Assembly (NCBI GenBank): GCA_039970455.1
Contig: JBDVLX010000174.1
Coordinates: 7,626-71,625, forward strand
Direction: 5' to 3'
Origin: Marinomonas sp.
GTDB taxonomy: Bacteria; Pseudomonadota; Gammaproteobacteria; Pseudomonadales; Marinomonadaceae
Length of the DNA stretch: 64,000 bases
A program made the position numbers and the translations under genes. Positions within the stretch are counted from its first letter, which is position 1, and each line of letters opens with the position of its first letter. This document shows, piece by piece, positions 6,977-52,853 of this stretch. A model generated the notes under the pieces. It had not been told where the DNA came from and did no database searches. It saw nothing but the letters and a program-made list of their open reading frames with translations.

Positions 6977-9841
6977 ATGAAAATGTTCCAAAGATTACTT
7001 TTCAGTCTACTCTTTTTTTGCGCTTCTCTGTCTCATGCGCATGAAGACCCTCTGTCTGCGTATTTTGTAGACCTTTGGACTTCTCACGATGGATTGCCTC
7101 ACAACAGCATCAGCGCCATAGCTCAAACGGAAGATGGCTATCTTTGGTTCGCGACATGGGAAGGTGTCGCTCGTTATAACGGCCGAAGTTTTATCTTGTT
7201 TGATCGAAATGAACAAACACACATGCAAGATTCAGGAAGCAAAACATTAGTCGCCGATGAGAATAATCAGCTTTGGGTTGGTGGTGCCCGTGGCAGCTTA
7301 GTCACTCGACAAGGGAAAGTTTGGCGGCCAAATGCGAGTGCCCCCGGTTTAATCAACCACGTACTTATCGACAACAGTAAGAACGTATGGATTGCCATTG
7401 AAAGCTTAGGTGTGATCTTTCGCCCCTTTATCCAAGAAGGCCAATATGGCGAGAATAAATGGTTAATCAAAGACACTAGCGCTTATCGCTTGGCAAAAAA
7501 CAGCCATGGAGTTTACGCTGGCACAGCAAACGGACTCTATCAATTAACTCCCACTTCTGCAGATAAAATCGATACCGATCTCTTCAACCGCGCAACCTAC
7601 ATATCGACTGGCAATAATGGTGACATCCTAATAGGTGCAGAGAATGGAGCCTGGCGTTGGGATGGTGAGTCTATTCACTCTTTCACAAGCGAGCTCAATA
7701 ACCAAAAAATCACTATGGTTGAACAAGACCATAATGGTTCCTATTGGTTTGGCACCATCAACAAAGGTGTCGCTCGTTTAAGCGGCGACGAGCTAGAATT
7801 TATTAGTGTGGAAGATGGTTTGCCACACAACCGTATTTTGTCTTGGTTCGAAGACATAGAACACAGCATTTGGATAGGGACCAATGGCGGCGTTATTCGA
7901 TTAAGAAAATCACTTTTCAACACGACTAGCCGAGTCTCAGGACTCATTGGTAATTACGCTAGAACCCTGTTAGAAACAAGTGACAATCGTTTGTTAGTTG
8001 GAACCAACAGCGGTTTAACCGTAATGAAAGGTGGTCATGTTGATCTCACAATACCGCCTTCTGAAGGTTTGTCTACCTTAAGCCTAGCGAAGAAAAAAGG
8101 TGGCGGAGCTTGGGTGGGAACCTATCAAAAAGGTCTTCTTAGCTGGAAAAATGGCGTCTTACAAGCAGAATTAGACGATAAGTCTGGTCTTCCTACCAAC
8201 CAAGTCAGAGCCATTTTAGAAGACAGCAATGATAACCTTTGGGTTGGGACCACTTTAGGTATCATCAAAAAATCGCCAGATGGCCAATTAGAACATATCA
8301 CCAAGCTTACTCACGGCTTATACGATGATTATGTCATGGCATTAGCAGAAGATGAGCTAGGCCAAATATGGGTTGGTACGGGTTTAGGGGCGGGGTACTG
8401 GAAAGACAACCAGTTTCATCCTCTGGATTTAAGTTCACAGGAAGGCGCCCAGTATGTGTTTGGCTTCTATCTCGAACCAGGTTACGTCTGGCTAGCCACA
8501 GACCGAGGCATTGTTCGATATAGACAATCCGATAAAAGTTTGGCACTCATCGGAAGGCCTCAAGGTTTATTAATCGATAAGTTTTTTCAGATTATAAAAG
8601 ACGACCAAGAGCACTTTTGGCTGTCCAGTAACCGCGGCATTTGGAAGATAAATTACCCTGATGCTCATGCTGTCGCAGACGGACGTCAAACAAGTATTAG
8701 CTTTGAGCATTATGATGAAAATGACGGCATGTCGAGCAGCCAAGCAAATGGCGGTTCAAACCCAGCTGCAGTAAAAACCAAAGACGGCCGAGTACACTTT
8801 GCCACCGCAGATGGTGTGGCTTCTATTCAGCCCAACAGCTTAATCCAACAAGCAAATGCGCCCTTACCTTTAATACTCGAATCGGTGAGTTTCGACTTAC
8901 ATGACATCAACCCAGAAGACGTTGTTATTGCCCCTGCAGGCACGAACCGAGTTTCCATTGCTTATGTAGGTTTGAGCTACATTATGTCTCAGCGCCTACA
9001 ATATCGTACCAAACTAGAAGGTTTTGATGACGAATGGGTGTATCGCGGCAACAAAGCTACTGCAGACTACACAAACCTTCCTCCTGGCCATTATCAGTTT
9101 TACGTCAGCGTTCGCTATCCGTACGGTGAATGGAACAAGAGCGTTCTCTTGTATGAATTCACGTTAGATCCTTTACTCTGGCAACGTAAAGACATTATAG
9201 GCATCACCTTTTTATCCATCATAATCCTCATCGGATCTATCATTGTTTGGCGAGTGAATATTCTTAAAAAGAGTGAGCTGAGACTAAAAGAACAAGTGGA
9301 AGAGCAAACTCAAACTCTGCGTTTACAATCCAAGATGTTTGAAGCGCTCTCCCAAGAAGATGCTTTAACTGGGTTGGCAAATCGCCGAGCCTTCGATGCG
9401 AATTTGAAAAGGCTTTACGAAGCGGCCAAAGCAGACAAACAAGCTCTGTATTTGGCGATTTTAGACATAGACTACTTCAAGAATATTAATGACCAATACT
9501 CCCACTTAGTGGGTGATAAGGCGCTGATTTGCTTTGCGAATATTCTAAATGAACTGGCGACCAGTAAAGATCATGTGGCTCGCTGGGGTGGAGAAGAGTT
9601 CACCATGCTTTATTTAGACGATAATCCGAAGCAGTTCTTCGATAATGTTCATCAACGCATTGAACAAAATAACTATGATCACATCGAAAAAGGCATAAAA
9701 ATTACCGCGAGCATTGGTGTGGCTGGCGGCATTCAGTTAGACGATTATGAAACCACTTTGAAGCAAGCAGATAATGCCTTGTTGAAGGCCAAACATAATG
9801 GCCGAAACAGAGTCGAGTTTTATCAAGACCCAACGTCATAA
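6977..9841 (+). CDS. Diguanylate cyclase with periplasmic two-component-regulator beta-propellers and Y_Y_Y domain
   Basis: Signal peptide, repeated DGLP/LW(F/I)GT propeller motifs, YRTKLEGFDDEW...YTNLPPGHYQF, one TM, then DALTGLANRR and RWGGEEF. Confidence 0.95.
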   Translation: MKMFQRLLFSLLFFCASLSHAHEDPLSAYFVDLWTSHDGLPHNSISAIAQTEDGYLWFATWEGVARYNGRSFILFDRNEQTHMQDSGSKTLVADENNQLWVGGARGSLVTRQGKVWRPNASAPGLINHVLIDNSKNVWIAIESLGVIFRPFIQEGQYGENKWLIKDTSAYRLAKNSHGVYAGTANGLYQLTPTSADKIDTDLFNRATYISTGNNGDILIGAENGAWRWDGESIHSFTSELNNQKITMVEQDHNGSYWFGTINKGVARLSGDELEFISVEDGLPHNRILSWFEDIEHSIWIGTNGGVIRLRKSLFNTTSRVSGLIGNYARTLLETSDNRLLVGTNSGLTVMKGGHVDLTIPPSEGLSTLSLAKKKGGGAWVGTYQKGLLSWKNGVLQAELDDKSGLPTNQVRAILEDSNDNLWVGTTLGIIKKSPDGQLEHITKLTHGLYDDYVMALAEDELGQIWVGTGLGAGYWKDNQFHPLDLSSQEGAQYVFGFYLEPGYVWLATDRGIVRYRQSDKSLALIGRPQGLLIDKFFQIIKDDQEHFWLSSNRGIWKINYPDAHAVADGRQTSISFEHYDENDGMSSSQANGGSNPAAVKTKDGRVHFATADGVASIQPNSLIQQANAPLPLILESVSFDLHDINPEDVVIAPAGTNRVSIAYVGLSYIMSQRLQYRTKLEGFDDEWVYRGNKATADYTNLPPGHYQFYVSVRYPYGEWNKSVLLYEFTLDPLLWQRKDIIGITFLSIIILIGSIIVWRVNILKKSELRLKEQVEEQTQTLRLQSKMFEALSQEDALTGLANRRAFDANLKRLYEAAKADKQALYLAILDIDYFKNINDQYSHLVGDKALICFANILNELATSKDHVARWGGEEFTMLYLDDNPKQFFDNVHQRIEQNNYDHIEKGIKITASIGVAGGIQLDDYETTLKQADNALLKAKHNGRNRVEFYQDPTS

Positions 9842-20961: not shown

Positions 20962-22671
20962 ATGGCTTTTGGCTTTTACTCACTACGACACGTATGTCTC
21001 ACTCTCTTTTTCTTGTTTATTTCTAGCGTCACTTTCGCTGAGATCTCAAATGTCGATATTGCATCGCCAGACTTTGTCTTAGAAAATTTCCAAATGAGTT
21101 ACTTTGTTGATATTTCTGAAGAAATGACATTGGAAGACGTTCAACAACAAACATTTACCCCTTCAACAAACAGCGTGTCTTTAGGCTCCAAAGCCAAAAC
21201 CACATGGGCAAAGATCGAGCTTCAAAATACAACAAAAACGATCATCACTGCTTTCCTGCACCACCCTTACGCTTACCATAATAAGTCTGTTGTTCTTTAC
21301 GAAGTGGTGGATGGACGCTTAGCCAACACTCGTATCCTAGACATGGATGATCCAGCCAGCTTAACTTGGATGCTAAAAGGCGTCGCGGCCTACGATGTTC
21401 ACTTACCCCCCAAACAACACACTACGCTTTATATAAAAAGCGTTTCCTTTTCCCATCAATGGTTTTCGTTAGATTTGTACGGAGAAGAACAATCTCGCCG
21501 CGCCCTTTTAGGCCAATATACAGAAATTGCTCTGTTAGTCGGAATGCTGTTGGCACTGATTATTTACAACTTAAGCTTATTCGCGTTCTCAGCTCAAAAA
21601 GAGCATTTATTTTACGCTTTATACCTAATCAGCGGAGGCTTCTGGTCAGCCTTATCTTATGGCCTACTTGCCGACCTCTTTGAGGTATACGGCAGTGTTA
21701 CGATCAATTGGCATATTTCGTTGGGCGCAATGCCAGTTTTCTTACTGTTATTTATGATGGAAATTTTTGAAACCAAGAAAAAGTATCCTATAGAACACAA
21801 AGCGCTGGCGATTACTGCCACCTTAATCACCCTCAACTTTATGTATGGTGCGGTCGATATTATCACCTCGCTGAAACACTCAAATATGCTGGCGGCCATC
21901 ATGATGGTGGTCAGTCTCGCGGTTTCTGTTTCTATGATAATACGCCGCCACCCTATTGCCCCGTTCTTCTTATTAGGGCACAGCTTGTTTCTTATCTTTA
22001 GCGTAAAAGCCCTGCTCTTCTATAGCGGTCGAGCTGACTTTACTTATATCAATAGTCACGGCGTTGGCATCGGTATTCTCTTAGAAGGTTTGGTTTTGGC
22101 TTTTATCATTGCATACCGCATTCGCACATTAGAAGCGATAAAAGCCTCTCAAGAGCAATTAAAAATCCAAGCAACAACGGACTCTATGACTCAGCTTTTC
22201 AACCGAGGCTACTTTAACCAACAAGTTAGAAGCCTGATTAATGATTCAAAATGCTTAGAAATGGGCAGCTATATAGCCATCATAGATATCGACTTTTTCA
22301 AAAATATTAATGACTCCTATGGCCACGCTTTTGGCGATAAAGCCATTATTGAGACGGCGAGGGCCATAAAAGAAAATAGTCGAGGAAGTGACGTGGTTGC
22401 CCGCTATGGTGGAGAAGAGTTTGTTATCTTCATGCCAGAAACCACACAATGCCAAGCGTTTGAGCTAGCGGAGAAAATTCGTACCAGCTTAAAAGCCACA
22501 CTTTATACAGACGACCACAAGCCGTTAAACCTTACCGTCAGCATTGGCTTGTGTGAGATAAACGATCAAGAGTCTGACCTAGATATATGCCTAAACAATG
22601 CAGATAAAGCATTGTATATCGCAAAGAAACAAGGAAAAGATCAGACGAAGGTTTATTCTGAAGAAATGTAA
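20962..22671 (+). CDS. Diguanylate cyclase with 7TM-DISM sensor (7TMR-DISMED2 + 7TM + GGDEF)
   Basis: Extracellular domain, seven hydrophobic helices starting GMLLALIIYNL, DSMTQLFNRG, RGSDVVARYGGEEF. Confidence 0.93.
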   Translation: MAFGFYSLRHVCLTLFFLFISSVTFAEISNVDIASPDFVLENFQMSYFVDISEEMTLEDVQQQTFTPSTNSVSLGSKAKTTWAKIELQNTTKTIITAFLHHPYAYHNKSVVLYEVVDGRLANTRILDMDDPASLTWMLKGVAAYDVHLPPKQHTTLYIKSVSFSHQWFSLDLYGEEQSRRALLGQYTEIALLVGMLLALIIYNLSLFAFSAQKEHLFYALYLISGGFWSALSYGLLADLFEVYGSVTINWHISLGAMPVFLLLFMMEIFETKKKYPIEHKALAITATLITLNFMYGAVDIITSLKHSNMLAAIMMVVSLAVSVSMIIRRHPIAPFFLLGHSLFLIFSVKALLFYSGRADFTYINSHGVGIGILLEGLVLAFIIAYRIRTLEAIKASQEQLKIQATTDSMTQLFNRGYFNQQVRSLINDSKCLEMGSYIAIIDIDFFKNINDSYGHAFGDKAIIETARAIKENSRGSDVVARYGGEEFVIFMPETTQCQAFELAEKIRTSLKATLYTDDHKPLNLTVSIGLCEINDQESDLDICLNNADKALYIAKKQGKDQTKVYSEEM

Positions 22672-37248: not shown

Positions 37249-38520
37249 ATGGAAGCCTTACCAGACCACCAGCAAAGTCAGAGAATACGAGTGGTGCATT
37301 TAGCAGATCACTCTGGTCGTTTGCAGGTTCTTTTCCCTGAAAGCAATATGCTCGATATTGCTGCTGTATCACGCATTACAAAGCGCCGTTTAGAGCCCGT
37401 TGCCCACTTTCATCCATCGGGCGATGCTCTTATAAAACCCAACAGCGTAATGACAATTATAGAAAGCAGCTTATTGGAAAATGACCAAGCTTTTCTTATC
37501 CGTACAAAAGCCGGCGGACAATACCGAGAGATCACAGGAAACCAATTAAAAGAGCTGTTTTCAGGCCCGCTTAACCGCTTTGAAAGCATTTCTATTCACA
37601 CTTCTGCGATCAACAAACCGACTGAAAACCACGAAAATGACGAAGAACAGATCCTTCAAGCGCTCGGTAAATTTCAATCCATACGACTCAAGCAACGTTT
37701 GGAAGAAACATTAGAGATTCCGCCTTTGCCCGCTTCTTCCCATAGAATCATCAAACTGTCATCAGATAAGTCCGCAGGGACAGATGAGCTATGTGAAGTC
37801 ATTGCATTAGACCCAAGTTTATCTGCACAGGTCGTTAGCTGGGCGTCTTCTCCTTATTATGGAGCGCCGGGGTCAATTGAGTCTGTAGAGGATGCCATTA
37901 TTCGCGTTCTCGGCTTTGAAATGGTGATGAATTTAGCGCTTGGACTATCAATGGGTAACGCCTTCAAGACACCAGAAGAAGGACCTCGTCACTATGAAGA
38001 CTTCTGGCTAGATTCGGTTTCACGTGCCGTTCTCATGGAATCCTTAGTAAAGGCTATGCCAATAAAAAACCGTCCAAAGCTGGGCCATGCTTACTTAGCA
38101 GGCTTGCTGCACAACTTTGGATTCCTTGCGATTAATGCTATTTTGCCGCCCCATTTTTCCATCTTATCTCGCTACCAAGAAGCCAACGCGCATTTGGCGG
38201 CTGAGTTCACTGAAATGCACATACTGCATTTTACCAAGGAACAATTGGCATCTTGGCTATTACGTTATTGGAGCTTGCCAGACAATATTTGGATGGCCAT
38301 AAGATACAGTAAAAAACCTCATTATTATGGAGAACACGCCATATTAGCCAAGCTGCTCTATGTGACTTACCAACTCCGTCATGAGGCCGATATTGAGCCT
38401 GAAGTGCTCAATGAAATAGGCTTAACACTTGAGGAAGTCGAAAACTGCGAAAAAGAGGTTTTCAAAAAATCGGCCGAGTTGCATAAAATGGCGTCTTTAA
38501 TTAACAAGATAAATGCCTAG
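37249..38520 (+). CDS. YbaK-like + HDOD domain protein (SadB-like)
   Basis: HDOD core LEIPPLP...DPSLSAQVVSWASSPYY...AIIRVLGF...GLLHNFG; the N-terminus resembles the degenerate YbaK domain of Pseudomonas SadB; same recG-linked position. Confidence 0.82.
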   Translation: MEALPDHQQSQRIRVVHLADHSGRLQVLFPESNMLDIAAVSRITKRRLEPVAHFHPSGDALIKPNSVMTIIESSLLENDQAFLIRTKAGGQYREITGNQLKELFSGPLNRFESISIHTSAINKPTENHENDEEQILQALGKFQSIRLKQRLEETLEIPPLPASSHRIIKLSSDKSAGTDELCEVIALDPSLSAQVVSWASSPYYGAPGSIESVEDAIIRVLGFEMVMNLALGLSMGNAFKTPEEGPRHYEDFWLDSVSRAVLMESLVKAMPIKNRPKLGHAYLAGLLHNFGFLAINAILPPHFSILSRYQEANAHLAAEFTEMHILHFTKEQLASWLLRYWSLPDNIWMAIRYSKKPHYYGEHAILAKLLYVTYQLRHEADIEPEVLNEIGLTLEEVENCEKEVFKKSAELHKMASLINKINA

Positions 38521-40718: not shown

Positions 40719-42043
40719 AAAGCATTTGGCGAAATACCATACTAAGTTGGCTGTCGGGCCTCGCAGCTTGCATTGTCATTGGCCTTATCATTGGTCAATT
40801 GTTAGGGGTGTTATTGCTGTATGTTTTAGGATCTTTGTATTGGCAGCTATACCAGCTTTACCAATTCCATAGCTGGCTGCGCTATTCCAGTAAAGCATCG
40901 CCTCCGGAAGCCAGTGGAATTTGGGGAGACGTTTTTGACGCCGTTTACCGTTTGCAAAAAAAGCAACGTAAATCAAAACGTCGAATGCGCCAAGCATTAA
41001 CACGGATCGAAAGCTCGACGACCGCCTTAAAAGAAGGCGTGATTATGGCGGACAATCAAGGTAATTTAGAGTGGTGGAACAATTCTGCAGCTCACTTCTT
41101 TGGTCTGATGCGCCCTGTAGATCGAGGTCAGATAATCACCAACATCGTTCGCAGTCCGGAATTTTTCCGCTACTTCTCACAAAAACGCTTTGGGGAACCA
41201 CTGGTTATTAAATCCCCTGCAAAAGAAGGTGTTTACCTAGAAATACAAACAACGCTGTACGATAAAAATGATCACCTAATTTTTGTCCGTGATGTCACCC
41301 GTTTGCATCTTCTTGAACAAATGCGCAAAGACTTTGTTGCCAACGCCTCTCACGAGCTCAAAACACCTTTGACAGTGATTAAAGGTTATCTAGAAACCCT
41401 CGACATGTTTAAAGACAGTCTGCCGAAAAGCATGCAAAAAGGCATAGTTAACATGTCTGAACAGTCTGAGCGTATGGAACACCTCATTGAAGACTTGCTT
41501 CTTTTATCTCGTTTAGAAAGTGATGAAAAACGCGAAGAGAATCAATGGCACAAAGTCTTAGACGTTGTAAACGCCATTCAAAGTGCTGTGGAATCCATTG
41601 TGACTGAGCAGCACATCATCTCTGTCAAAATTCCTGATGAAGCTTATGTCTACGGTTCCTACAAAGAGCTCTATAGCGCTTTCTCTAACCTAATTGTTAA
41701 TGCCATTAAATACTCACCGGATGGTGGCGAAGTGGAAATCAAATGGGAATCTAGTCATCTCAATGGCGTATTCTCTGTGAAAGATGCTGGTTTAGGAATA
41801 GACCCTAGACACATTCCAAGGCTCACTGAGCGCTTCTTTAGAGTAGACAAGGGAAGAGGCTCAAAAACCGGAGGAACAGGCCTTGGGTTAGCCATAGTGA
41901 AGCATGTGTTGTTGCATCATGACGCTAAGCTTCAAATTCGCAGCCAACCGGGCCATGGCAGTACTTTTTCCTGCTATTTCCCAGCCAACCGAACACAGCA
42001 TGAGTCTGTCTCGACCCTCATTTTCAAAGGCAATGAAAGCTAA
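40715..42043 (+). CDS. phoR: Phosphate regulon sensor kinase PhoR
   Basis: PAS region, MRKDFVANASHELKTPLTV, NAIKYS, RFFRVDKGR...GGTGLGLAIVKH. Confidence 0.96.
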   Translation: MKSIWRNTILSWLSGLAACIVIGLIIGQLLGVLLLYVLGSLYWQLYQLYQFHSWLRYSSKASPPEASGIWGDVFDAVYRLQKKQRKSKRRMRQALTRIESSTTALKEGVIMADNQGNLEWWNNSAAHFFGLMRPVDRGQIITNIVRSPEFFRYFSQKRFGEPLVIKSPAKEGVYLEIQTTLYDKNDHLIFVRDVTRLHLLEQMRKDFVANASHELKTPLTVIKGYLETLDMFKDSLPKSMQKGIVNMSEQSERMEHLIEDLLLLSRLESDEKREENQWHKVLDVVNAIQSAVESIVTEQHIISVKIPDEAYVYGSYKELYSAFSNLIVNAIKYSPDGGEVEIKWESSHLNGVFSVKDAGLGIDPRHIPRLTERFFRVDKGRGSKTGGTGLGLAIVKHVLLHHDAKLQIRSQPGHGSTFSCYFPANRTQHESVSTLIFKGNES

Positions 42044-42058
42044 GCTGTTCCTAAAAAA

Positions 42059-42085
42059 AATAGGGAAGCCATTTGCTTCCCTATT
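42059..42085. terminator. Bidirectional terminator
   Basis: AATAGGGAAGC-CATTT-GCTTCCCTATT between convergent genes. Confidence 0.85.
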
Positions 42086-42111
42086 TATTACCTAAACACC
42101 TTCACGCCCGT

Positions 42112-42963
42112 TTATAAGCTGTTAAATAGTTGTGCGATAAAGTCTTCTTTTTCCTTGTCTTGGTCAATTAAGCTCAAGGTCACGGTTAAGAAGGTTGAAT
42201 CATGTTTCTTCTCTGTCGTAGATACTGATTGCACATAATAATTTAAACGGTTCATCGTGCCTTTATGCTCCAAATCCAGCACGGCTTGCCCTAACACCTG
42301 AGGCACCACATCGTCACTTTTAATCAACATGGTGGCTTCTTGCTTGCTAAATTGGATGACCATGCAGCGAAATTGCTTTTCCTCGAATCGTACAATCGTC
42401 GGCAATTTCACATCTTTCACTGTCACAACGGGGTCATCAGGGTGAGTGAACTTAGTTGCTTGAATAGGTTGAGTAGATTTCCCCGCCCCCATTAGGACAT
42501 CAATAGAAGCGGAAGCCACACCTTGGTTTCCTGTGTTAGCTTGACGAGGTTGTTGCGACACTAAGCGACCTTCCAACTTATGCTTCTTCGCAGCAGACAC
42601 CACTTTATTAATTAACTGCTCGCCTGAGAACGGCTTACCAAGATAATCCGTTACGCCTGCTTGTACCGCTTCAACAACATGGCTTTTATCACCTCGACTG
42701 GTAATCATGACAAATGGCACGTCGGCTTTCTGATATTGCGGCTGTTCGCGACACCATCTCAGTAACTCAACGCCTGTCATTTCAGGCATTTCCCAATCAC
42801 AAAGCACCATATTAAATTGCATTTTGGTCAATAGCTGCTGTGCTTTTCGACCATTAATCGCATCTTCAATTTCGACCGCTGGAAATTGCTTGCGCAAAGT
42901 TCTACGAATCAAGTCTCGCGTAAAAGATGCGTCATCAACTACTAGTATTTTCAGTGCCATCAC
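42112..42963 (-). CDS. Response regulator: receiver domain plus uncharacterised C-terminal beta domain
   Basis: VVDD...LCDWEMPEMTG...TSRG...GKPFS intact receiver; syntenic with the regulator between phoR and phoU in Pseudomonas. Confidence 0.88.
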   Translation of the reverse strand: MMALKILVVDDASFTRDLIRRTLRKQFPAVEIEDAINGRKAQQLLTKMQFNMVLCDWEMPEMTGVELLRWCREQPQYQKADVPFVMITSRGDKSHVVEAVQAGVTDYLGKPFSGEQLINKVVSAAKKHKLEGRLVSQQPRQANTGNQGVASASIDVLMGAGKSTQPIQATKFTHPDDPVVTVKDVKLPTIVRFEEKQFRCMVIQFSKQEATMLIKSDDVVPQVLGQAVLDLEHKGTMNRLNYYVQSVSTTEKKHDSTFLTVTLSLIDQDKEKEDFIAQLFNSL

Positions 42964-43739
42964 AATATTCCATTCGTTTTATCTAACAAGGCTGAGAAAT
43001 CGCCGTGCGCCGTTCTAAAAGTGGAAACCCACAGCAAAGTTGCCGCAACAACCGCAATGGGCATCATAAACAAATTCAACAAAGGAATCGCTAAACCAAC
43101 CATAACAACACCGCCAAAAGTCCAGCACAACAAGGGCTTGGAGCGAAGAGCTTGTCTCATGTCGCCAAATTTGACCTTGTTATTATCAAAGGCGTAATCC
43201 ATAAACTGCAAAGCGAGCATCCAAGCAGAAAACAAAAGCAACAACACAGGCGCAATAACATTTACAATGGGTATAAAGGACAATAGCAGCAATAATAAAA
43301 AGCGCGGTAGAAAATACAGAATTTTCTGACATTCCCTTTGCAAGCTGCGACCTATAATTTTCATTATCACGCTTGCGGTTAATTGCTCATCAAAGGTCTT
43401 ACCGGTTTCTTTTTCTTCCACTTTCTCAGCTAAAAAAGCCATAAACGGCGAGGCCAGAATATTGATGCCAACAGAAAAACTGTAAAAAAGCAGAACACTA
43501 ATAACGGCACCAAAGATCAAATAGAACAACCAATTCAGAAAAGAAAACCAATCTGGCACATAGTTCATTGCCGAATCTAGCAAACTTTGAAAATAGCTAA
43601 ACGCAAGCATGTAAATTAATCCCATTAAGGCAAAATTGGCCAACAATGGAATCAAAATGAATAGCCTCAAATCTCTCGAGAGAAGCAAAGGAGCGGCTTT
43701 TAGAAAAGCGCCTACGGCTTTAAAGGGCTGGGTAATCAA
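42960..43739 (-). CDS. cysZ: CysZ/EI24 family membrane protein
   Basis: NILASPFMAFLAEKVE, ALQFMDYAFDN, PIAVVAATLLW. Confidence 0.85.
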   Translation of the reverse strand: MITQPFKAVGAFLKAAPLLLSRDLRLFILIPLLANFALMGLIYMLAFSYFQSLLDSAMNYVPDWFSFLNWLFYLIFGAVISVLLFYSFSVGINILASPFMAFLAEKVEEKETGKTFDEQLTASVIMKIIGRSLQRECQKILYFLPRFLLLLLLSFIPIVNVIAPVLLLLFSAWMLALQFMDYAFDNNKVKFGDMRQALRSKPLLCWTFGGVVMVGLAIPLLNLFMMPIAVVAATLLWVSTFRTAHGDFSALLDKTNGIL

Positions 43740-43941
43740 AGTACAAATTGCCTTTTAGTAAAGTAAAAAACACAGAGTATCACGGAGACTTTCTTGCCTC
43801 CACAAACTACTTCATGATTCCCTTTCTGTTCCATGTTTTGTGTCTTTATTGAGTAGAACAAACCACTATTTAACAACACAAACTCTCTTTTTTTGTCTAT
43901 TATAGAAAGCTCTTTTGAATTAGTCGTAAGGTGCTTTTCTT

Positions 43942-44451
43942 ATGCGTTTTTTCACTCTGTTAATATTGCTGCTTTCTAGCCCTCTCTCCCTGCCTTCTTA
44001 CGCATTAGAAAAGCCGTCTCATAGAGTTGTTTTAACCGTATCTGGGGCAATTAATGTGACGAATGTTAACCAAGAAGCGGCATTCGACATGACGATGCTA
44101 CAGGCTTTACCGCAATACGTTGTAACAACGAAGAACCCTTGGGCGAAAGCAGCGCATACTTATCAAGGCTTTTCAGCTATCGACCTACTCAACTCTTTGG
44201 GCAATAAGGGCAACTTACTTCAAGTCACCGCCTTAAATAAATACATGACTGAGATTCCGCTTTCTGACTTCGTGGAGCAAGGTGCAATTTTTGCTACACA
44301 CCAAGATGGTGTACCTATGAGCGTTCGGAACCTTGGTCCAATTATGGTGATTTACCCTTTTGATGCGAATGAAAACTTAAGGTCAGAGCTGTATTACAGC
44401 CGATCTATTTGGCAAGTAAGCAGTATTAAAACCCTTATTGTTGCGGAGTAG
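43942..44451 (+). CDS. Exported protein with a molybdopterin-oxidoreductase-like fold and no Cys
   Basis: Signal peptide; VLTVSG, TTKNPW, ALNKY, DGVPMSVRNLGPIMVIYP, SIWQV motifs. Confidence 0.75.
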   Translation: MRFFTLLILLLSSPLSLPSYALEKPSHRVVLTVSGAINVTNVNQEAAFDMTMLQALPQYVVTTKNPWAKAAHTYQGFSAIDLLNSLGNKGNLLQVTALNKYMTEIPLSDFVEQGAIFATHQDGVPMSVRNLGPIMVIYPFDANENLRSELYYSRSIWQVSSIKTLIVAE

Positions 44452-44454
44452 AAG

Positions 44455-46257
44455 GTGCTTTTATCCAAACAAAAAGCATGGCTAGCAAGCTTCCGTAAAT
44501 CGGTTCTATATGCTTTCATCATCCTTATCATCACGATTTCTATTACGCTATTTGGCATTATCACTTACACAAATGAAAGTACGAAGGACAATAGCCGTAG
44601 AATCTTTGAAAGCTCTCTATGGTGCGCACTGCAGCTGCAAATACAGTCTTATCGGTTATTGGATTACCTCATTAACCTGGATGGAAGCACCTTCCCCTTA
44701 AAAGGCGAAGCATTTTTCGAATACGACCTGCTTATGAGTCGTATCGACTTACTTAGAGAAGGCGAAATCGGTTCGCTTATTCGCAACTTTGAAGAAGGAC
44801 GCATCGTAAAACACCTCAACCTAATCAACGGTGAATTAGAGCTATTAAGCTTTCATATATCCAAATTAGAGCAAAATGACCTATCCTATTTAACCAGCAT
44901 AATTGAGCGTATTCAGCGCCTTCAGCCTAAAATTGATGAGTTTGTCTCTCTGGTGAATAAAGGCAGTACGGATTACATAAATAAAGAACATCAAGATTTT
45001 GAGCAAAGTCTAAGCGCCATCCAGTTTTTATCTATGGCGCTATTAATCTGTTTGTTACTCTTATCTTTCTTTACGGTTAAAGCTCTGCTTGAGTTGCAAA
45101 AGGCATTAAAAGACAGCAATAAACTGAAAGCAGGTATGCAGGCTGTTCATGAAGACAAAACCAATATGCTGGCCTTTATTCATCAGGAACTTAGGTCGCC
45201 GATCAACGCTATTTTGGGTATTGCTCAGACGGTCAAAAATGCACCTTCTACTCAATCATCTACCGAGCTTTCCAAACACATTGAAGAGGCAGGTGATCAA
45301 TTACTTCAAAACATCGAAATGTTCTCTGATTTAGCGCAAATTGAGACGGATGAATTCTCTCTTCTGCATACAACCGATAACCTTCAAAAGCATGTGGAAG
45401 CCTGCCTGACACAATTTGAATCTCAAATGACTCGTAAAGGTCTACAAGGCATTGTTTACATCGATCCTCTTTTACCAAAAGACATTACCATCGACTTCAA
45501 TCGATTAAAAAAAATCATTATCAGCTTACTGCAAAACGCATTAACTCACACGCCTTCTGGCAGCATCAGTGTGCAAATTCGCCCTTCTATTCTTGCCATT
45601 CCATTAATGACAACACCTCCCGTATCTACGCAAGAAACAAGAATGCTGCAAATTGCTGTGAAAGACACAGGCTTAGGCATGCCAGGGCAATTGCAAGATA
45701 ACTTGAGAATGAGCCCATTACTTCCCCAAGATGACGAATCCATATTAAGACGAATTGGCTTGAACTTAGCTCTATGTCATAAGTTAGTGAAATTCATGAA
45801 TGGTGAAATTCATTTTTATAATGCACCTCAAAAAGGCTGTGAGTTCTGGGTCGATGTTCCCTATTATGTTGAACGTGATGACACCCAAATTGACAAGCCT
45901 GAGAAAGCATCAAACCACCAGTTTTGCGCGAATAAGCATGTACTTATCATTGAAGAAGATTCACACTTGGCGAAAGTTCTGTCCAATCAGCTAGCAACAT
46001 TAGACATTAAAGTAACCCTTTTTAGAGAGGGACACATTCCGTCAAAAGAAAAGCTGGATGCCATCATTCTTGGTAATTCAACTTGGCTAGAAAGAAACGG
46101 ATTCGATATGATGGAGCAGTGGAAAAAGCAAGGAACCCCTATTCTTAGCTACAGTACTGATGCGATTAAACAATATGGGCTGCATATCACACCTCTATCG
46201 TTTCCGCTGTTACAGAGCCAGATAGAGAAAATAGTCACTCAGCGTTTTAAACAATAA
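44455..46257 (+). CDS. Hybrid sensor histidine-kinase-like protein with degenerate H-box and receiver
   Basis: Two TM, HQELRSPINAILG in place of SHELRTP, N-box QNALTHT, VKDTGLGM, G2 IGLNL, receiver DAIILG. Confidence 0.85.
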   Translation: MLLSKQKAWLASFRKSVLYAFIILIITISITLFGIITYTNESTKDNSRRIFESSLWCALQLQIQSYRLLDYLINLDGSTFPLKGEAFFEYDLLMSRIDLLREGEIGSLIRNFEEGRIVKHLNLINGELELLSFHISKLEQNDLSYLTSIIERIQRLQPKIDEFVSLVNKGSTDYINKEHQDFEQSLSAIQFLSMALLICLLLLSFFTVKALLELQKALKDSNKLKAGMQAVHEDKTNMLAFIHQELRSPINAILGIAQTVKNAPSTQSSTELSKHIEEAGDQLLQNIEMFSDLAQIETDEFSLLHTTDNLQKHVEACLTQFESQMTRKGLQGIVYIDPLLPKDITIDFNRLKKIIISLLQNALTHTPSGSISVQIRPSILAIPLMTTPPVSTQETRMLQIAVKDTGLGMPGQLQDNLRMSPLLPQDDESILRRIGLNLALCHKLVKFMNGEIHFYNAPQKGCEFWVDVPYYVERDDTQIDKPEKASNHQFCANKHVLIIEEDSHLAKVLSNQLATLDIKVTLFREGHIPSKEKLDAIILGNSTWLERNGFDMMEQWKKQGTPILSYSTDAIKQYGLHITPLSFPLLQSQIEKIVTQRFKQ

Positions 46258-46281
46258 ATACATTCTAACAAGGCACTTTAA

Positions 46282-46617
46282 ATGATCGACCACTCCTATC
46301 TCGACTCACTTGTTGAGCTACTTGGAAAAGACACCATAAACGGAATACACTTAGTTTATGTAGATGAAAGTGCCGAAAAGCTGCAAGATTTATTAACCGC
46401 ATGGAAAGCAAAGAACTACACAGAGCTGCAAGACATCAGTCATTCATTGAAATCTTCCAGCTTAAGTATGGCTATGACAGACTTTGCAGAACAATGCCGG
46501 ATAATAGAAGAACTGTCGCAAACAGCAGATGAGCAAGGCGTTAAACCAATCATAGAGAGCTTGTCTGTTATCTATCACAAGTCCTTAGAAGAACTCGTGG
46601 CCTATTTCGAAGACTGA
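46282..46617 (+). CDS. Stand-alone Hpt domain protein
   Basis: 111 aa, helical; ISHSLKSSS phosphoacceptor motif. Confidence 0.88.
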   Translation: MIDHSYLDSLVELLGKDTINGIHLVYVDESAEKLQDLLTAWKAKNYTELQDISHSLKSSSLSMAMTDFAEQCRIIEELSQTADEQGVKPIIESLSVIYHKSLEELVAYFED

Positions 46618-46643
46618 TAAAAAAAGAAGCAACCTGAATTCGC

Positions 46644-47150
46644 TTAAACTGCAAAGCTCCAGTTCATATCCGTTGCGGAAACAAAAGTCGCCACGAAGGA
46701 TTCAATTCCCGCTTGATCAACTTCAGTAAAACGTTCGACCTTTGGACTGTCCATATCAAAAACGCCAATCAACTTACCCTGTGAAATAACAGGCACTACC
46801 AGCTCAGAAGCAGAAGCGGCGTCGCAGGCTATGTGTCCATCAAAAGCATGAACATCTTCGATACGTTGTGTTTGTTGGGTTTTCGCCGCTTCACCACACA
46901 CTCCTCGACCAAAAGGAATACGAGTACAAGCCACTTTGCCCATATAAGGTCCAAGCACTAATTCTTCATCACGAGCAAAGTAAAAACCAGACCAGTTAAG
47001 ATCAGGAACAGTCTGCATGACAAAAGCAGAAAATTGAGCAGCATTACAGATGAAATCTCGCTCTCCACTGAGCAAGGCCGCCAGTTGAGCGTTTAATTCT
47101 TGATAGGTTTCTTGCGGGGAAGAGGTTGTATTTACTTCTATTGTAAACAT
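46644..47150 (-). CDS. msrC: GAF-domain free methionine-(R)-sulfoxide reductase (MsrC/YebR)
   Basis: LNWSGFY, LGPYMGKVACTRIPFGRGVCG, HIACDAASASE with all three Cys. Confidence 0.9.
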   Translation of the reverse strand: MFTIEVNTTSSPQETYQELNAQLAALLSGERDFICNAAQFSAFVMQTVPDLNWSGFYFARDEELVLGPYMGKVACTRIPFGRGVCGEAAKTQQTQRIEDVHAFDGHIACDAASASELVVPVISQGKLIGVFDMDSPKVERFTEVDQAGIESFVATFVSATDMNWSFAV

Positions 47151-47238
47151 GAAGGTTATCACCAAAAAAGACAAAGCCAGATGATAACAAAATCTGTACA
47201 GAGGAGAGAAACAGATAAAAGGGATTGATTAAGAAAGT

Positions 47239-47279
47239 ATCGATCTCATGCTAGCCCAAGGCAATAGCATGAGATCGAT
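47239..47279 (-). terminator. Long hairpin after phoU
   Basis: 15-bp stem ATCGATCTCATGCTA / TAGCATGAGATCGAT. Confidence 0.75.
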
Positions 47280-47287
47280 TGGCACTA

Positions 47288-48001
47288 TTACACGCCTTTT
47301 ACTTCATCTGCTAAATCATTCACGTTCACGTGGCGTACATCGACACCTTTCACCATGAAGATCAAATGCTGACAAGTGTGGCGAGCATGGTCACCAATGC
47401 GTTCAAGCGAACGAAGTACCCAAATGACATTGATCACGCTCGAAATACTGCGTGGATCTTCCATCATATAAGTCACTAAAGAGCGCAAAGCCGCTTCGTA
47501 TTCACGGTCTACTTCACGGTCTTTTTTCGCTACTTTAATTGCCGCATCGATATCTAATCGAGCGTAAGCGTCCAATGAGTCATGAATCATTCGTGACACC
47601 ATTTGACCAATACGGCTGATCTCAACATAACCGCGTGGAGATTCACCACCGTCGATCAAATCAGAAGTCAATTTGGCGATCTTTTTCGCTTCATCACCTA
47701 TTCGCTCTAATTCACTCACGGCTTTACTGATCGACAGAATCATACGCAAGTCAGAGGCTGCAGGCTGACGCTTAGCAAGAATGCGCGTACATTCTTCGTC
47801 TATCAAGCCATCTAGTTCATTAACAGAAGCGTCTTTTGCTCTGACTTCTTCTGCTAATTCGCCGTTAGCGTCTAAAAGAGCCTGAACTGCATCTTGAACC
47901 TGAGTCTCAACAATACCGCCCATGGTCAAAAAGTGTTGGCGCAACATTTCTAGCTCGTTATTAAACTGCTGAGAAATATGATCCGTTGTTAATTCTTTCA
48001 T
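47288..48001 (-). CDS. phoU: Phosphate signalling complex protein PhoU
   Basis: HISQQFNNELE, QPAASDLR, LERIGD twice. Confidence 0.97.
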   Translation of the reverse strand: MKELTTDHISQQFNNELEMLRQHFLTMGGIVETQVQDAVQALLDANGELAEEVRAKDASVNELDGLIDEECTRILAKRQPAASDLRMILSISKAVSELERIGDEAKKIAKLTSDLIDGGESPRGYVEISRIGQMVSRMIHDSLDAYARLDIDAAIKVAKKDREVDREYEAALRSLVTYMMEDPRSISSVINVIWVLRSLERIGDHARHTCQHLIFMVKGVDVRHVNVNDLADEVKGV

Positions 48002-48015
48002 AATCCGTCCTCCGC

Positions 48016-48846
48016 CTAGCCGTAGCGACCTGTGATGTAATCTTCTGTTTGTTGCTTACTTGGGTTAGTAAATAAAGAATTCGTATCGCCAAATTCAATC
48101 AAATCACCCATGTACATGAAGGCAGTGTAATCCGATACACGCGCTGCCTGCTGCATATTGTGAGTTACGATCGCAATGGTGAAATCGTTTTTCAGTTCGT
48201 GGATTAACTCTTCAATTTTCAATGTTGAGATTGGGTCCAAGGCAGAAGCTGGCTCATCCAACAATAAAACTTCAGGTTTTACCGCTACCGTACGAGCGAT
48301 AACCAAACGCTGCTGCTGACCACCAGACATGCCCAAAGCACTTTCGTGTAGACGGTCTTTTACTTCGTCCCACAATGCCGCTGAACGCAACGCCCATTCA
48401 ACGGTTTCGTCAATCACACGCTTTTGGTTAATGCCTTGAATACGCAAGCCGTACGCTACGTTTTCGTAGATGCTTTTTGGGAATGGATTTGGCTTTTGGA
48501 ACACCATACCAACACGACGACGCAATTCTGCTACGTCCGTGCCTTTTTCATAAATATTGCTGTCATGCAGGTTGATCTCACCGGTAATACGGCAGCTATC
48601 AACCAAGTCATTCATGCGGTTGAAACAACGCAACAGCGTTGATTTACCACAACCAGAAGGACCGATGAAAGCCGTTACCTTCTTCTCAGGGATGATCATA
48701 TCCACGCCTTTAAGCGCTTCTTTTTCCCCATAGTAAAGATGCAAATCTTTAACAGAAAGGCAAACGGTTTCATCTTCGATGCGCAAAGCTTGCTGGCTAC
48801 GCTGCATCGCTGAAATATCAATTGAGTGTGTTTTTGCTTCGCTCAT
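48016..48846 (-). CDS. pstB: Phosphate ABC transporter ATP-binding protein PstB
   Basis: [37 protein letters not shown]. Confidence 0.98.
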
Positions 48847-48863: not shown

Positions 48864-50579
48864 TTACATTTCTAGCGATTTGTATTTTTCACGTAGGTGA
48901 TTTCGAATCGTTACTGCTGAAAGATTCAGTAGTGCAATAACCATCACAAGTAATAACGCTGTTGCATAAACAAGTGGTCGCGCTGCTTCCACGTTCGGGC
49001 TTTGGAAACCTACATCATAGATGTGGAAGCCTAAGTGCATGAACTTCTGATCCAAATGTATGAATGGGTAGTTTCCATCCAATGGCAAAGTTGGAGCTAG
49101 TTTCACAACACCCACCAACATCAAAGGCGCAACCTCACCAGCGGCACGAGCCACCGCCAAGATAACACCTGTCATGATTGCTGGGCTGGCCATTGGAAGA
49201 ACCACACGCCATAGGGTTTCGGCTTTTGTCGCACCTAACGCCAAGCTACCTTCGCGTACGTTACGAGGAATACGAGACAAACCTTCTTCTGTCGCCACGA
49301 TAACCACTGGCACAGTTAACAATGCCAAAGTAATCGATGCCCACATCAAGCCACCCGTACCAAAGGTTGGTGACGGCAATGCTTCTGGGAAAAACGCTTG
49401 GTCGATTCCTGAACCTAAAAAGTAGATAAAGAAACCCAAACCAAATACACCGTAAACAATAGAAGGAACACCAGCCAAGTTGTTTACTGCGATACGAATC
49501 ACACGAGTAATAACACCTTGTTTCGCGTATTCACGAAGATAAACGGCCGCAACAACACCAAAAGGCGTAACCAATACTGTCATTAACAATACCATCATCA
49601 CAGTACCGAAGATCGCAGGGAAAACACCACCTTCTGTATTCGCTTCACGAGGATCATCGGTTAGGAATTCCCATACTTTATTAAAGTAGAAACCTAACTT
49701 CTCGAAAACGCCCATCGCATTAGGACGGAAAGCGTGAACGATTTTCGATACTTGGATTTCATGTACCGTACCGTCCATTACTCTTACAGTGAATGAGTCA
49801 CGATTGATCTGCTGGTATAGATCTGCAAGGTTCGCTTGCAAGCCTTTATACTCTTCATCGTATTGTGAACGCTCTGCCGCAAGGTCCGCTTCTACTTCTA
49901 GTGTTAATTCACCGTTCAGTTCAAAGCGACGCTGCTTAAGACGAATACGCTCAAGGGCATGGTTGATTTTACCGATATCACCTTTTTCGATGTCTTTGAT
50001 TTCGTCATGGATAACCGCAGCACGCTCGATGCTTTTCTCGAAAGTTGCCCAAGTCGCCAAAGCAGAATCTGTCGGCGTTAAGTCCGATGTTTCAGACACA
50101 ACCTGACCATCTTCTTTCACTGACATTAGGTAACCGTAAAGATTACCCCATTCATGACGCTCTGCAGCGAACAACATTTCCGGTGTTTGAATGTCGCTTA
50201 GGTATTTATCCAACACCCAACCAAAATCCGCACCGTAAACATCGCGGTTACCCATTTTAAGAAGCGTACGCTTAAGCAAAGGGTCGCCACCTTCAGGGAG
50301 GTTTACACCGGCTTCACGTAATTGAGCAGCCGTTACTTCTACGCTCTCAACACGTTCTGCCGCAATGGTGTAAGACTTCTCACCAGGCAATGAATAAGTC
50401 GCTTGCATCACATCCGCTGGCCAAAAATGACCCAAGCCTCTGACAGCAATCAAAAGTAATAAACCGACTACCATGATGACCGAAATCGCCACAGCACCTG
50501 CATTTAGCCACACCCATGGATCACCAGATTTAACCCATTGAGATACGGACTGTTTTTCCATTTTCATTTCGCTACTCAT
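48864..50579 (-). CDS. pstA: Phosphate ABC transporter permease PstA (long form with large periplasmic insert)
   Basis: [38 protein letters not shown]. Confidence 0.97.
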
Positions 50580-52853
50580 TACAATGACCCGTATTTTTTG
50601 CGTAGGTGCTGACGCACGGTTTCAGCGATCGTATTCACTACAAAAGTGAAGATGAACAGAACAAACGCTGCCAAGAACAGAATACGATAATGTGAACTTC
50701 CCACTTCTGATTCCGGTACTTCTACCGCAAGGTTCGCTGCTAACGTACGCATACCTTCGAAGATGTTGAAGTCCATAATTGGCGTATTACCAGTCGCCAT
50801 AAGAACGATCATGGTTTCACCTACCGCACGACCCATACCAATCATGACGGCAGAGAAGATACCTGGGCTCGCTGTTGGCAATACAACGCGAGTCATGGTT
50901 TGCCAATAAGTTGCACCCAATGCTAGAGAACCTTGAGTTAAGGCTTTTGGCACACTGAAAATTGCATCTTCCGTGATAGAGAAGATGGTTGGGATAACCG
51001 CAAAGCCCATCGCAAAACCAACAACTAAAGCGTTACGCTGGTCGAAAGTGATGCCTAAGTCATGAGTAATCCAGCCGCGAATGTTGCCACCGAAGAAGCT
51101 TAATTCAATGATTGGGCTCAAGATCAAACAGAACCAAGCAAGGAAAACAATCACAGGAATAAGCAATAATGGCTGCCAGCCGTCTGGCACTAACCAGCGA
51201 ATGTTGGTTGGCAATCTTGACCATAGATAAGCAAATAGCAGAATACCAGCAGGTAAAACCACCAATATGCTAAAGGTTGCCGCTAAGTTTTCTTCAAGGA
51301 AAGGCGCAAAGAAAAGACCCGCTAAGAAACCTAGGATAACCGTTGGCAAAGCTTCCATCAGCTCGATCACAGGCTTGATCTTACGACGCAAGGCTGGCGC
51401 CATGAAGTAAGCCGTGTAGATCGCACCACAGATTGCCAAAGGCACAGCCATCAGCATAGCGTAGAACGCCGCTTTTAAGGTACCAAATGCCAAAGGCATC
51501 AAGCTGTACTTAGGCTCGAAGTCGTTACTTGCTGAAGACGACTGCCAAGTGTAAGTCGGCTCTGGGTAACTTTCGTACCAAACTTCACCCCAGATAGACG
51601 ACCAAGACACTTCTGGGTGCTCGTTATCTACGTGGTAGAAATGCAGACCTTTACCGTCTTCTAGTAATAAACCATTCGCGCGAGGAGAGAAACTAATCAA
51701 ACGAGCTGTTTCATCACTCAAACGTTCATCGATTACTTTACGCTTAGAGGTGGCGTTGTAAATCGCCACTAAACCGTTTTCGTCCAATGTGGCAAAACCT
51801 TTACGGCGTTGTTCCATAGCCGTATCAACAATCGCATTTGGCTGCTGAACATCACGGATGAAATGCAGTTTTTCTTCGTTGGTTTCGTCATCACGAACGT
51901 TAAACCATTGGCTCACACGACCAGAAGAATCCGCCACCATTACCGAGGTTTTACCTACTAGAGGTTTTACCTACTAGGTAGTTCATTGAAACAAGCTGGG
52001 AATTCTCAGAAACCAATGAAGCGCTGTCTTTCAGACTAATGTTATCGAAGTCACGTAGATCAAACTCGCTGAATTCACCTGAGTTTGTTGCGATATACAA
52101 AGAACGCTGATTACCACTGATGAGTAGACTGTTGATGTCCGCAATGAATGGAATCGCTTCGCGTTGTTCAGTTAACTCAACTTCTTCGGTGATGAAATTA
52201 ACATCTTTAGTTACTTTCAAAACCGATGTTTGAGATTCGCCAGAAGCAGCGATCGTCAAACCATCTTCACTGTCGCGAATCGCCAATTTCTCAATGGCGA
52301 AATCCGCAACCTTGATGGCTTCTTCACCATAAGGATACTCAACAAAAGGCTTAATCTGACGCTTTCCATCAGGGTACGAAGTACGGTAGCTGTGCTGTTT
52401 AATCACCACTTTACCGTCGGCGTAACCGAATGCCAGTAAACGACTCGTATCAGACTCAACGGTGAAACTTGTCACCTCTTCTGCACGGGCGCTTTCTATT
52501 GTCTCAATGACAGAACCGTCCTCGATAGAAAAGAATACGATGGCACCATTGCTGGCAACACGCATACCAATTTCAGATTGCTCTTCCGTTGCTAAATAAA
52601 GGCTTTTACCTTCATCTTGAGCAGGCAAAGAATAACTTGCCTTAGGGTCTATTGAAGCACCAGAAAATAATGGCGCTACTTCATAAAAGAGATAGAAACA
52701 GATCAGAAGTACAGCAAGAATTACGCTGCTCCCTCCGACTGCTATGCCCATTCCAGCCGCTTTGTCTTTCAGGGCTCGAAACTTACGATGACGCTTTAAA
52801 GCTGGCGTGTTGAAATCCAGTTCTGGCATCTGATGGTCAGTCGATTTAGTCAT
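50579..52853 (-). pseudogene. pstC: Phosphate ABC permease PstC (long form), frameshifted by a 16-bp tandem duplication into ORFs 51951-52853 and 50579-51940
   Basis: Removing one GAGGTTTTACCTACTA copy fuses the frames as ...MNYLVGKTSVMVADSSG... (2259 nt, 752 aa); the C-terminal part has PLAFGTLKAA and GRAVGETM. Confidence 0.92.
51945..51976. repeat. Exact 16-bp tandem duplication (GAGGTTTTACCTACTA x2)
   Basis: Copies at 51945-51960 and 51961-51976. Confidence 0.97.

Follow-up and report, generated by a model that had tools for sequence, protein, structure and literature searches.

The 64,000-nucleotide stretch of Marinomonas sp. DNA analysed here (contig JBDVLX010000174.1 of assembly GCA_039970455.1, positions 7,626 to 71,625; hereafter the window) carries at 43942-46617 a three-gene module encoding an exported PruR protein, a membrane-bound protein resembling a histidine kinase, and a stand-alone histidine phosphotransfer (Hpt) protein. 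Based on comparisons of these genes with their orthologues and with already characterized systems, we propose, with moderate confidence, that the module is a PruR-DTB pterin-sensing system whose transmitter has turned into a pseudokinase, and that it modulates a phosphorelay by protein contacts, without catalysis of its own. The locus is of the PruR-DTB kind and represents an undescribed Marinomonas variant of it; Marinomonas pairs may already be listed in the existing catalogue of more than 5,500 PruR pairs.

In PruR-DcpA systems, pterin-loaded PruR docks onto a diguanylate cyclase-phosphodiesterase at its periplasmic domain, as described in PNAS 2024 and a 2026 review (PMC11194511, PMC13259868). 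In PruR-DTB systems the same periplasmic domain is mounted on a TorS/BaeS-type kinase; such pairs have been named and left uncharacterized, and account for ~23-29% of the catalogue (PMC11194511, PMC13259868). A search of the later literature found no paper characterizing a PruR-DTB. An earlier note on this DNA, made from the letters alone, had recognized the three genes as a signalling module and knew of no characterized system like it, a statement to be amended since PruR has solved structures and an established function together with DcpA, and PruR-kinase pairs bear the name PruR-DTB.

The three open reading frames (ORFs) are closely packed on the + strand, at 43942-44451 (169 aa), 44455-46257 (600 aa) and 46282-46617 (111 aa). 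The kinase-like ORF starts with GTG 3 nt beyond the TAG stop of pruR, and the Hpt ORF 24 nt past the kinase stop. Pfam places the 169-aa protein in Oxidored_molyb with 25.6 bits, barely over the cutoff of 24, and the 111-aa protein in Hpt (PF01627) with 40.6 bits against a cutoff of 24.6, while the 600-aa protein matches HisKA (36.8 bits) and HATPase_c (50.8 bits) and gives no match to Response_reg. On re-reading of the window, all sequence details recorded earlier for the H-box, the G2 box, DAIILG, LSFPL, SHSLKSSS and the absence of Cys were present. The labels that these genes currently carry, 'molybdopterin-dependent oxidoreductase' and 'sensor histidine kinase', are both misleading.

The exported protein (43942-44451, +) is, as judged by profile, fold and residue comparisons, a PruR orthologue that retains all known pterin-contact residues, and pterin binding is predicted. 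A profile of 121 homologues matched A. tumefaciens PruR (structures 7KOS and 7KOU) in the PDB with an E-value of 2.8e-57 for 7kos_A, followed by the 'pterin binding protein' structures 7RKB, 7KP2 and 7KOM. The alignment-based AlphaFold2 model has a predicted local distance difference test score (pLDDT) of 91.8, as opposed to only 34 for a single-sequence prediction, and Foldseek superimposes it on 7kos_A with a target template modelling (TM) score of 0.94, a root-mean-square deviation of 1.3 Å and 39% identity. Its fold is hence of the SUOX type, yet SUOX-family enzymes themselves reach target TM-scores of only ~0.23-0.41, a distant subdomain match. Confidence exceeds a pLDDT of 90 beyond the first 20 residues; the low values of these residues and reading of the sequence point to a predicted Sec signal peptide at aa 1-21 (43942-44004, +), ending in PSYA and followed by LEK, in agreement with the N-terminal secretion signal of the PruR family (PMC11194511, PMC13259868).

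All five hallmark residues of PruR are kept. Pro66 and Trp67 of NPWAK (44134-44148, +) form the PW motif that replaces the Cys ligating the molybdenum cofactor (Moco), Asn99 and Tyr101 of LNKYM (44233-44247, +) are the predicted residues for pterin hydrogen bonding and stacking, and Trp157 of SIWQV (44404-44418, +) is the second predicted pterin-stacking residue. They correspond to P69-W70, N102, Y104 and W160 of the A. tumefaciens protein with a constant offset of 3; W67, N99, Y101 and W157 do not vary among the 121 homologues, and P66 shows a conservation of at least 90%. The protein had previously been taken for a molybdopterin-oxidoreductase-like fold set apart by its lack of Cys. That lack is real (0 Cys in 169 aa), and the idea of a periplasmic ligand-binding accessory working without Moco is supported by the PruR identity. 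However, no conserved Cys column exists anywhere in the PruR family alignment, so that the absence of Cys, whose place is taken by Trp, is a rule of the family rather than a peculiarity of this locus.

The second gene (44455-46257, +) encodes a putative DTB-type sensor pseudokinase of 600 aa, in which a first transmembrane helix (TM1), a periplasmic domain, a second helix (TM2), DHp, CA and a pseudo-receiver follow one another, as derived from the Pfam HisKA and HATPase_c matches and from 63 orthologues. All residue counts below refer to an alignment of these 63 sequences, i.e. the window protein and 62 full-length relatives. Hydropathy places hydrophobic segments at ~aa 17-38 and 190-212, bracketing ~150 aa of periplasmic domain (aa 39-188; 44569-45018, +), in line with the ~138-150 aa of DcpA-type partners. 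By BLASTP this domain matches its counterparts in canonical PruR-linked hybrid kinases with E-values of 5e-6 and 1e-7, and its assignment to the DcpA type is made via those kinases, not via DcpA itself. With 65% it has the highest mean pairwise identity of any domain of the kinase-like protein. A WX7E motif is invariant in DcpA-type periplasmic domains (PMC11194511, PMC13259868); here it reads WX7Q (Trp56 to Gln64; 44620-44646, +), with both Trp and Gln present in 63/63 Marinomonas orthologues. The Glu is kept in four of five relatives outside Marinomonas, the fifth (P0251, from Aestuariispira) having Ser. The likeness to PruR-DcpA of A. tumefaciens (7KOS/7KOU; Feirer 2015, Greenwich 2024) thus extends over an exported PruR of ~170 aa, its PW/N/Y/W pterin site, and a pruR gene directly upstream of, and coupled to, that of a two-TM protein with a DcpA-type periplasmic domain. 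It ends at WX7E, replaced by WX7Q, and at the output, which is GGDEF-EAL in DcpA and a kinase-like transmitter in Marinomonas.

This transmitter is, as far as its motifs tell, incapable of canonical His-to-Asp chemistry. In the H-box (KTNMLAFIHQELRSPINAILG; 45157-45219, +) the phosphoacceptor column holds Gln244 (CAG, 45184-45186), preceded by His243 (CAT, 45181-45183), precisely the shift by one position that had been noted before. The phosphoacceptor column reads Q57/H3/N2/R1 and the -1 column N22/H21/S8/T3/V3/A2/L2/E2; Glu occupies the +1 column in 61/63 sequences, and the +4 column, where phosphatases have T/N, contains S33/P16/A5/H3/F2/Y2/R1/T1. A comparable case is PsmA of Streptomyces, also distributed genus- or family-wide and devoid of the H-box His and of the phosphatase motif, though a cytoplasmic DivIVA partner without a sensor domain (PMC12963549). 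The residue at the His position of PsmA varies (E/D/Q/V/Y), but in Marinomonas Gln is nearly fixed, which suggests that Gln244 itself is selected and may play a structural role.

The CA domain is HATPase_c-like (Pfam match aa 347-470; 45493-45864, +) and keeps the N-box Asn361 (62/63), the G1 Asp404 (63/63) and Gly406 and Gly408 (63/63 and 62/63). Its set of nucleotide-binding motifs is nevertheless incomplete: the F box is replaced by LQxNLR, and alignment with canonical relatives confirms that the G2 box is degenerate, RIGLNL (aa 433-438; 45751-45768, +) being three residues shorter than the canonical GGTGLGL and without two of its three Gly. Across the alignment, K, R, Q, E or D stands at the first of these Gly and S28/N21/G9 at the third. 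Alignment and profile identify the C-terminal domain as a pseudo-receiver (aa 494-600; 45934-46254, +) containing DAIILG (46057-46074) at the phospho-Asp site and LSFPL (46195-46209), with FP for KP, at the Lys site, again as first described. The phospho-Asp column is G56/T5/S1/M1 and the Lys column F53, neither Asp nor Lys occurring at these positions in any of the 63 sequences. The curated equivalogs BarA, TorS, LuxQ, RcsC and ArcB were not reached, the best being BarA with 123.8 bits against a cutoff of 890. The catalytically altered sensor of the earlier note is therefore supported, and of the features whose conservation it had proposed to examine in orthologues, the Gln acceptor and the Asp-less receiver are conserved while the -1 His is not. 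In a cluster comprising M. dokdonensis and relatives (P0244), the protein has 447 aa, ends after CA without the pseudo-receiver and has a further degenerate H-box, IIKEMHRNF.

Canonical PruR-linked kinases were found in Hydrogenophaga, Siculibacillus and a metagenome, in each case as a single protein of 712-871 aa beside PruR that combines HisKA, HATPase_c, Response_reg and Hpt in one chain and carries SHE, GGTGLGL, the receiver Asp, Lys-Pro and the fused Hpt. With this class, which also includes Aestuariispira, the Marinomonas module shares the gene pair and the domain order; it departs from it in the Gln acceptor, the degenerate G2, the lack of a true receiver and the split Hpt. A receiver-HD-GYP (RpfG-like) gene lies directly upstream of pruR in two of the three canonical loci (L010 and L011), suggesting that some PruR-DTB systems feed cyclic di-GMP (c-di-GMP) turnover via a response regulator.

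The nearest canonical relatives are two kinases of the alphaproteobacterium Aestuariispira, P0251 and P0262, of 879 and 841 aa, in which sensor, HisKA and CA are followed by a receiver-like domain, the true receiver and Hpt. Against a profile built from the C-terminal domain of the Marinomonas proteins, their receiver-like domain gives independent E-values of 1e-6 and 6e-5, as compared to 0.55 for the true receiver. Hence the C-terminal domain is probably the ancestral pseudo-receiver, and a freshly decayed true receiver was rejected on the basis of this preference. The extra Aestuariispira domain between CA and the true receiver recalls the ABL domain of RcsC. We further note that the separate Hpt gene starts exactly at the domain boundary of the fused Hpt. 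As judged from these domain comparisons, the true receiver has probably disappeared in Marinomonas, while the older pseudo-receiver stayed and Hpt became a gene of its own.

A protein search returned the 62 full-length relatives at 97% to 29% identity, all of those with a name belonging to Marinomonas, the closest genome being Marinomonas sp. GJ51-6 (97% amino-acid identity); the next matches were generic hybrid kinases at E ~1e-21. When the sensor half (aa 1-230) was compared exhaustively by phmmer with 1.84 billion representatives, only 27 proteins were found, and named members of the related clusters are M. balearica, M. communis, M. algicola, M. piezotolerans and M. dokdonensis. One member, with at least 90% identity, of the M. 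communis orthologue cluster (P0265) is labelled Vibrio hepatarius at NCBI; the probable cause is mislabelling or contamination of the assembly, or else a recent transfer. The ratio of nonsynonymous to synonymous substitution rates (dN/dS), determined by the Nei-Gojobori method for the window against two strains at dS ~0.8, is 0.09-0.10 for both pruR and the kinase-like gene, and 0.06-0.15 for Hpt. Within the kinase-like gene it is 0.08-0.09 for the periplasmic domain, 0.08-0.09 for DHp, 0.05-0.07 for CA and 0.10-0.12 for the pseudo-receiver. Since the unusual features recur over 63 orthologues down to 29% identity, they are due neither to chance nor to recent decay, and the catalytic substitutions are, by these measures, old and under purifying selection across Marinomonas. 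The earlier note had named recent decay with high dN/dS as the finding that would speak against an altered sensor; values of ~0.1 in all three genes reject recent pseudogenization.

A rough neighbour-joining distance tree allows the losses to be ordered. The canonical kinases are outermost and Aestuariispira is nearest, followed by basal Marinomonas, consisting of the M. algicola cluster and two metagenomic forms including that of locus L007, then by lineages with Ser or Asn as acceptor, and finally by a large Gln crown clade. The basal lineages retain the H-box His, yet they already have WX7Q and the degenerate G2 and lack a true receiver, indicating that the His was lost after kinase competence. 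In the crown clade, His occurs in two sequences (Marinomonas sp. C2222 and a relative) that are nested among Gln forms and look like reversions from Gln to His.

The third gene (46282-46617, +) encodes a 111-aa stand-alone Hpt protein with an intact phosphoacceptor, as previously reported: His54 of SHSLKSSS (CAT, 46441-46443) does not vary among 10 Marinomonas Hpts and lines up with the His of the fused Hpt in the canonical relatives. Conservation was here taken from the loci, a word-based homologue search having given three proteins only. Gene linkage was assessed in 12 loci, the window and 11 fetched ones, of which three close loci stem from a contig scan and the distant synteny from contigs encoding homologues. 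The pruR and kinase-like genes are adjacent in all 12, whereas Hpt is present in nine (the window, L001-L004, L007 and L014-L016), two of which (L014 and L016) show a 4-nt overlap of the kinase and Hpt genes; the co-occurrence of the three genes, which the earlier note had proposed to check, thus holds for the pair and for Hpt in part. The gene is gone, with no space left for it, in Marinomonas sp. C2222 (L006), its sister genome (L013) and M. pollencensis (L017). The acceptor of C2222 is His (VLHEMRHP), and its Hpt-less sister genome retains His-Gln; there have been at least two independent Hpt losses.

Taken together, we envisage that the PruR-DTB pseudokinase operates as follows. In the periplasm, pterin-loaded PruR would bind the four-helix periplasmic domain, and the resulting conformational change would travel via TM2 to DHp, CA and the pseudo-receiver. 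This would change the protein contacts of the pseudokinase rather than elicit phosphoryl chemistry of its own, the contact partner being either a genuine hybrid kinase encoded elsewhere or Hpt. Where present, Hpt would carry phosphoryl groups from the receiver of another kinase. In architecture and logic, with the signal entering through a pseudokinase, such a module resembles a split, convergent RcsD analogue. RcsD too sits in the membrane and combines a periplasmic domain with a HisKA-like domain that lacks the His, an ATPase-like domain that is degenerate, a receiver-like (ABL) domain and an Hpt carrying its His, and it receives regulatory input through its pseudokinase part. The likeness is architectural only, as the two are not homologous at the family level (75.3 bits for the NCBIfam equivalog, cutoff 634); moreover, the Marinomonas Hpt is a separate polypeptide, and the input is PruR, not IgaA. 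Control by a periplasmic protein is also known from TorT-TorS, in which a periplasmic binding protein acts on an unorthodox kinase via a periplasmic helical domain, and the Marinomonas Hpt scores best, with 40.8 bits, against the TorS C-terminus. However, TorT has a periplasmic-binding-protein fold rather than the SUOX fold, and TorS is catalytically complete.

Several observations weigh against this proposal. The nucleotide contacts are conserved, and dN/dS is lower in CA than in any other domain; with the N-box Asn and the G1 Asp and Gly in place, nucleotide binding and even some catalysis may persist. The replacement of the family-invariant periplasmic Glu by Gln means that PruR docking may differ, and the persistence of pruR and the kinase-like gene in the three Hpt-less loci implies that Hpt is not the sole output. 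Apart from PhoBR and a single receiver protein without conserved linkage, most of the larger ORFs of the window were searched without identifying a kinase or response regulator that could be the partner. The one RNA-seq run (X24) under the species label of the public runs that contain the window, sampled at ~6%, has 0 reads at the locus and gives no support for expression or an operon.

Alternatively, the pseudokinase may be a modulator only, of the RetS/DivL type, that heterodimerizes with or docks on a genuine kinase, e.g. the BarA-like PpoS, under the control of PruR, with Hpt as a leftover or in an unrelated role; we regard this as possible, if rather unlikely. DivL of Caulobacter and RetS of Pseudomonas are kinase-like proteins that act by contacts on a genuine kinase, with RetS-GacS and DivL-CckA as precedents, Marinomonas possesses the BarA/UvrY-type PpoS/PpoR system, BarA is the best curated match of the core, and survival of the gene pair after Hpt loss is readily accommodated. 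Against this, the BarA similarity is generic to hybrid kinases, with a score far below the cutoff, and purifying selection acts on Hpt, whose His never varies and whose translation is coupled in most lineages. The precedents also differ: DivL has Tyr as acceptor and is cytoplasmic and polar, RetS has kept its His, and neither has a PruR-type periplasmic ligand-binding partner.

Less probable, and in our judgement improbable, is a CheA-like split kinase, in which CA would still bind ATP and hand the phosphoryl group straight to His54 of the free Hpt, by way of neither the DHp His nor a receiver Asp, and Hpt would then pass it on to a response regulator. In CheA, a DHp-like domain without His works together with a His domain of the Hpt fold. 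An analogous route in Marinomonas would run under PruR/pterin control with Gln244 shaping the docking site, and would have evolved independently from a HisKA hybrid kinase, a scenario to which we assign an equally small probability. The retained N-box and G1 residues, the strong constraint on CA, the invariant Hpt His and the adjacent or overlapping kinase and Hpt genes are all compatible with it. Nevertheless, G2 is required for catalysis in CheA and EnvZ, and here it has lost two of three Gly and three residues, next to the replaced F box; in addition, Hpt is missing from three of the 12 loci that keep the kinase-like gene, and the basal lineages keep the DHp His.

A sensor acting as a phosphatase only, draining a response regulator or Hpt, is very improbable. 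His-to-Gln/Asn variants of some HisKA kinases retain phosphatase activity, and the +1 Glu is kept in Marinomonas, but T/N is not conserved at the +4 position, and draining of Hpt would require the receiver Asp, which is absent; the chemical 'feeding or draining' of Hpt considered earlier is not borne out for the same reasons. We give hardly any credence to a conventional kinase with His243 as phosphoacceptor, the shifted-His route of the earlier note: a His does stand beside the canonical position in the window and in 21/63 sequences in all, but the other 42 have N, S, T, V, A, L or E there within an otherwise conserved H-box, only certain subclades of the tree show the -1 His, G2 is degenerate and the receiver Asp is missing, so that this variable residue was rejected as acceptor. 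Equally remote is a decaying, functionless relic of a PruR-DTB system, which would explain the loss of several catalytic motifs and, in some lineages, of Hpt or the pseudo-receiver (as in the 447-aa M. dokdonensis form), but not the intact ORFs in 63/63 orthologues, the low dN/dS in every domain or the invariance of lineage-specific motifs including WX7Q and LQxNLR.

PruR-linked kinases constitute about a quarter of the more than 5,500 catalogued pterin-sensing pairs, none of them studied experimentally. As the ligand-binding partner and the likely class of ligand are known, the pseudokinase reading would make the Marinomonas module a tractable case of histidine pseudokinase signalling without phosphoryl chemistry. 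The clade offers a natural series, from forms with the His kept and the ATP lid lost, over the exchange of His for Gln and the loss of Hpt, to the return from Gln to His, and could reveal the path from a complete hybrid kinase to an RcsD-like phosphotransfer scaffold.

As to the surroundings of the module, Pfam searches on most of the larger ORFs of the window detected neither a hybrid kinase that could be the partner nor any gene for an HD-GYP protein or for pterin metabolism. A response regulator of 283 aa at 42112-42963 (-), between phoR and cysZ, consists of a receiver and a C-terminal domain of ~150 aa without a Pfam match. It is also present at the C2222 locus, but most Marinomonas instead have an opp-type ABC operon upstream of pruR, so that the regulator does not count as a conserved partner. 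A promoter and terminator scan at the locus gave fewer matches than in shuffled sequence and is uninformative. Downstream follow a gene for a GAF protein and then phoU and pstBAC, an order conserved within the genus and not outside it. A functional link to pst-phoU was rejected, as relatives outside the genus are not near pst and the neighbourhood hence reflects genus-level synteny.

Further along, a long pstC-type gene is interrupted at 51940-51980 (-), where a 16-bp tandem duplication (CTAGTAGGTAAAACCT x2) shifts the frame and leaves two ORFs, 50579-51940 and 51951-52853; in Marinomonas sp. C2222 it is a single ORF of 752 aa. The extra 16 bp are absent from the contig of a near-identical public run (X2), and contigs of another (X1) break there, so that the frameshift is either strain-specific or an assembly artefact. 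The window also contains genes related to c-di-GMP signalling, with no demonstrated tie to the PruR module, namely two large sensory diguanylate cyclases, of the Reg_prop/Y_Y_Y-GGDEF (6977-9841, +) and 7TMR-DISM-GGDEF (20962-22671, +) types, and an HDOD protein at 37249-38520. Positions 42000-48100 of the window are identical in three public runs (X1-X3) sharing one species label, at a low depth of ~7-8x. The same label is found on very large PacBio and RNA-seq runs of 2026, and the bacterium may have been sequenced as a minor associate within a larger project.

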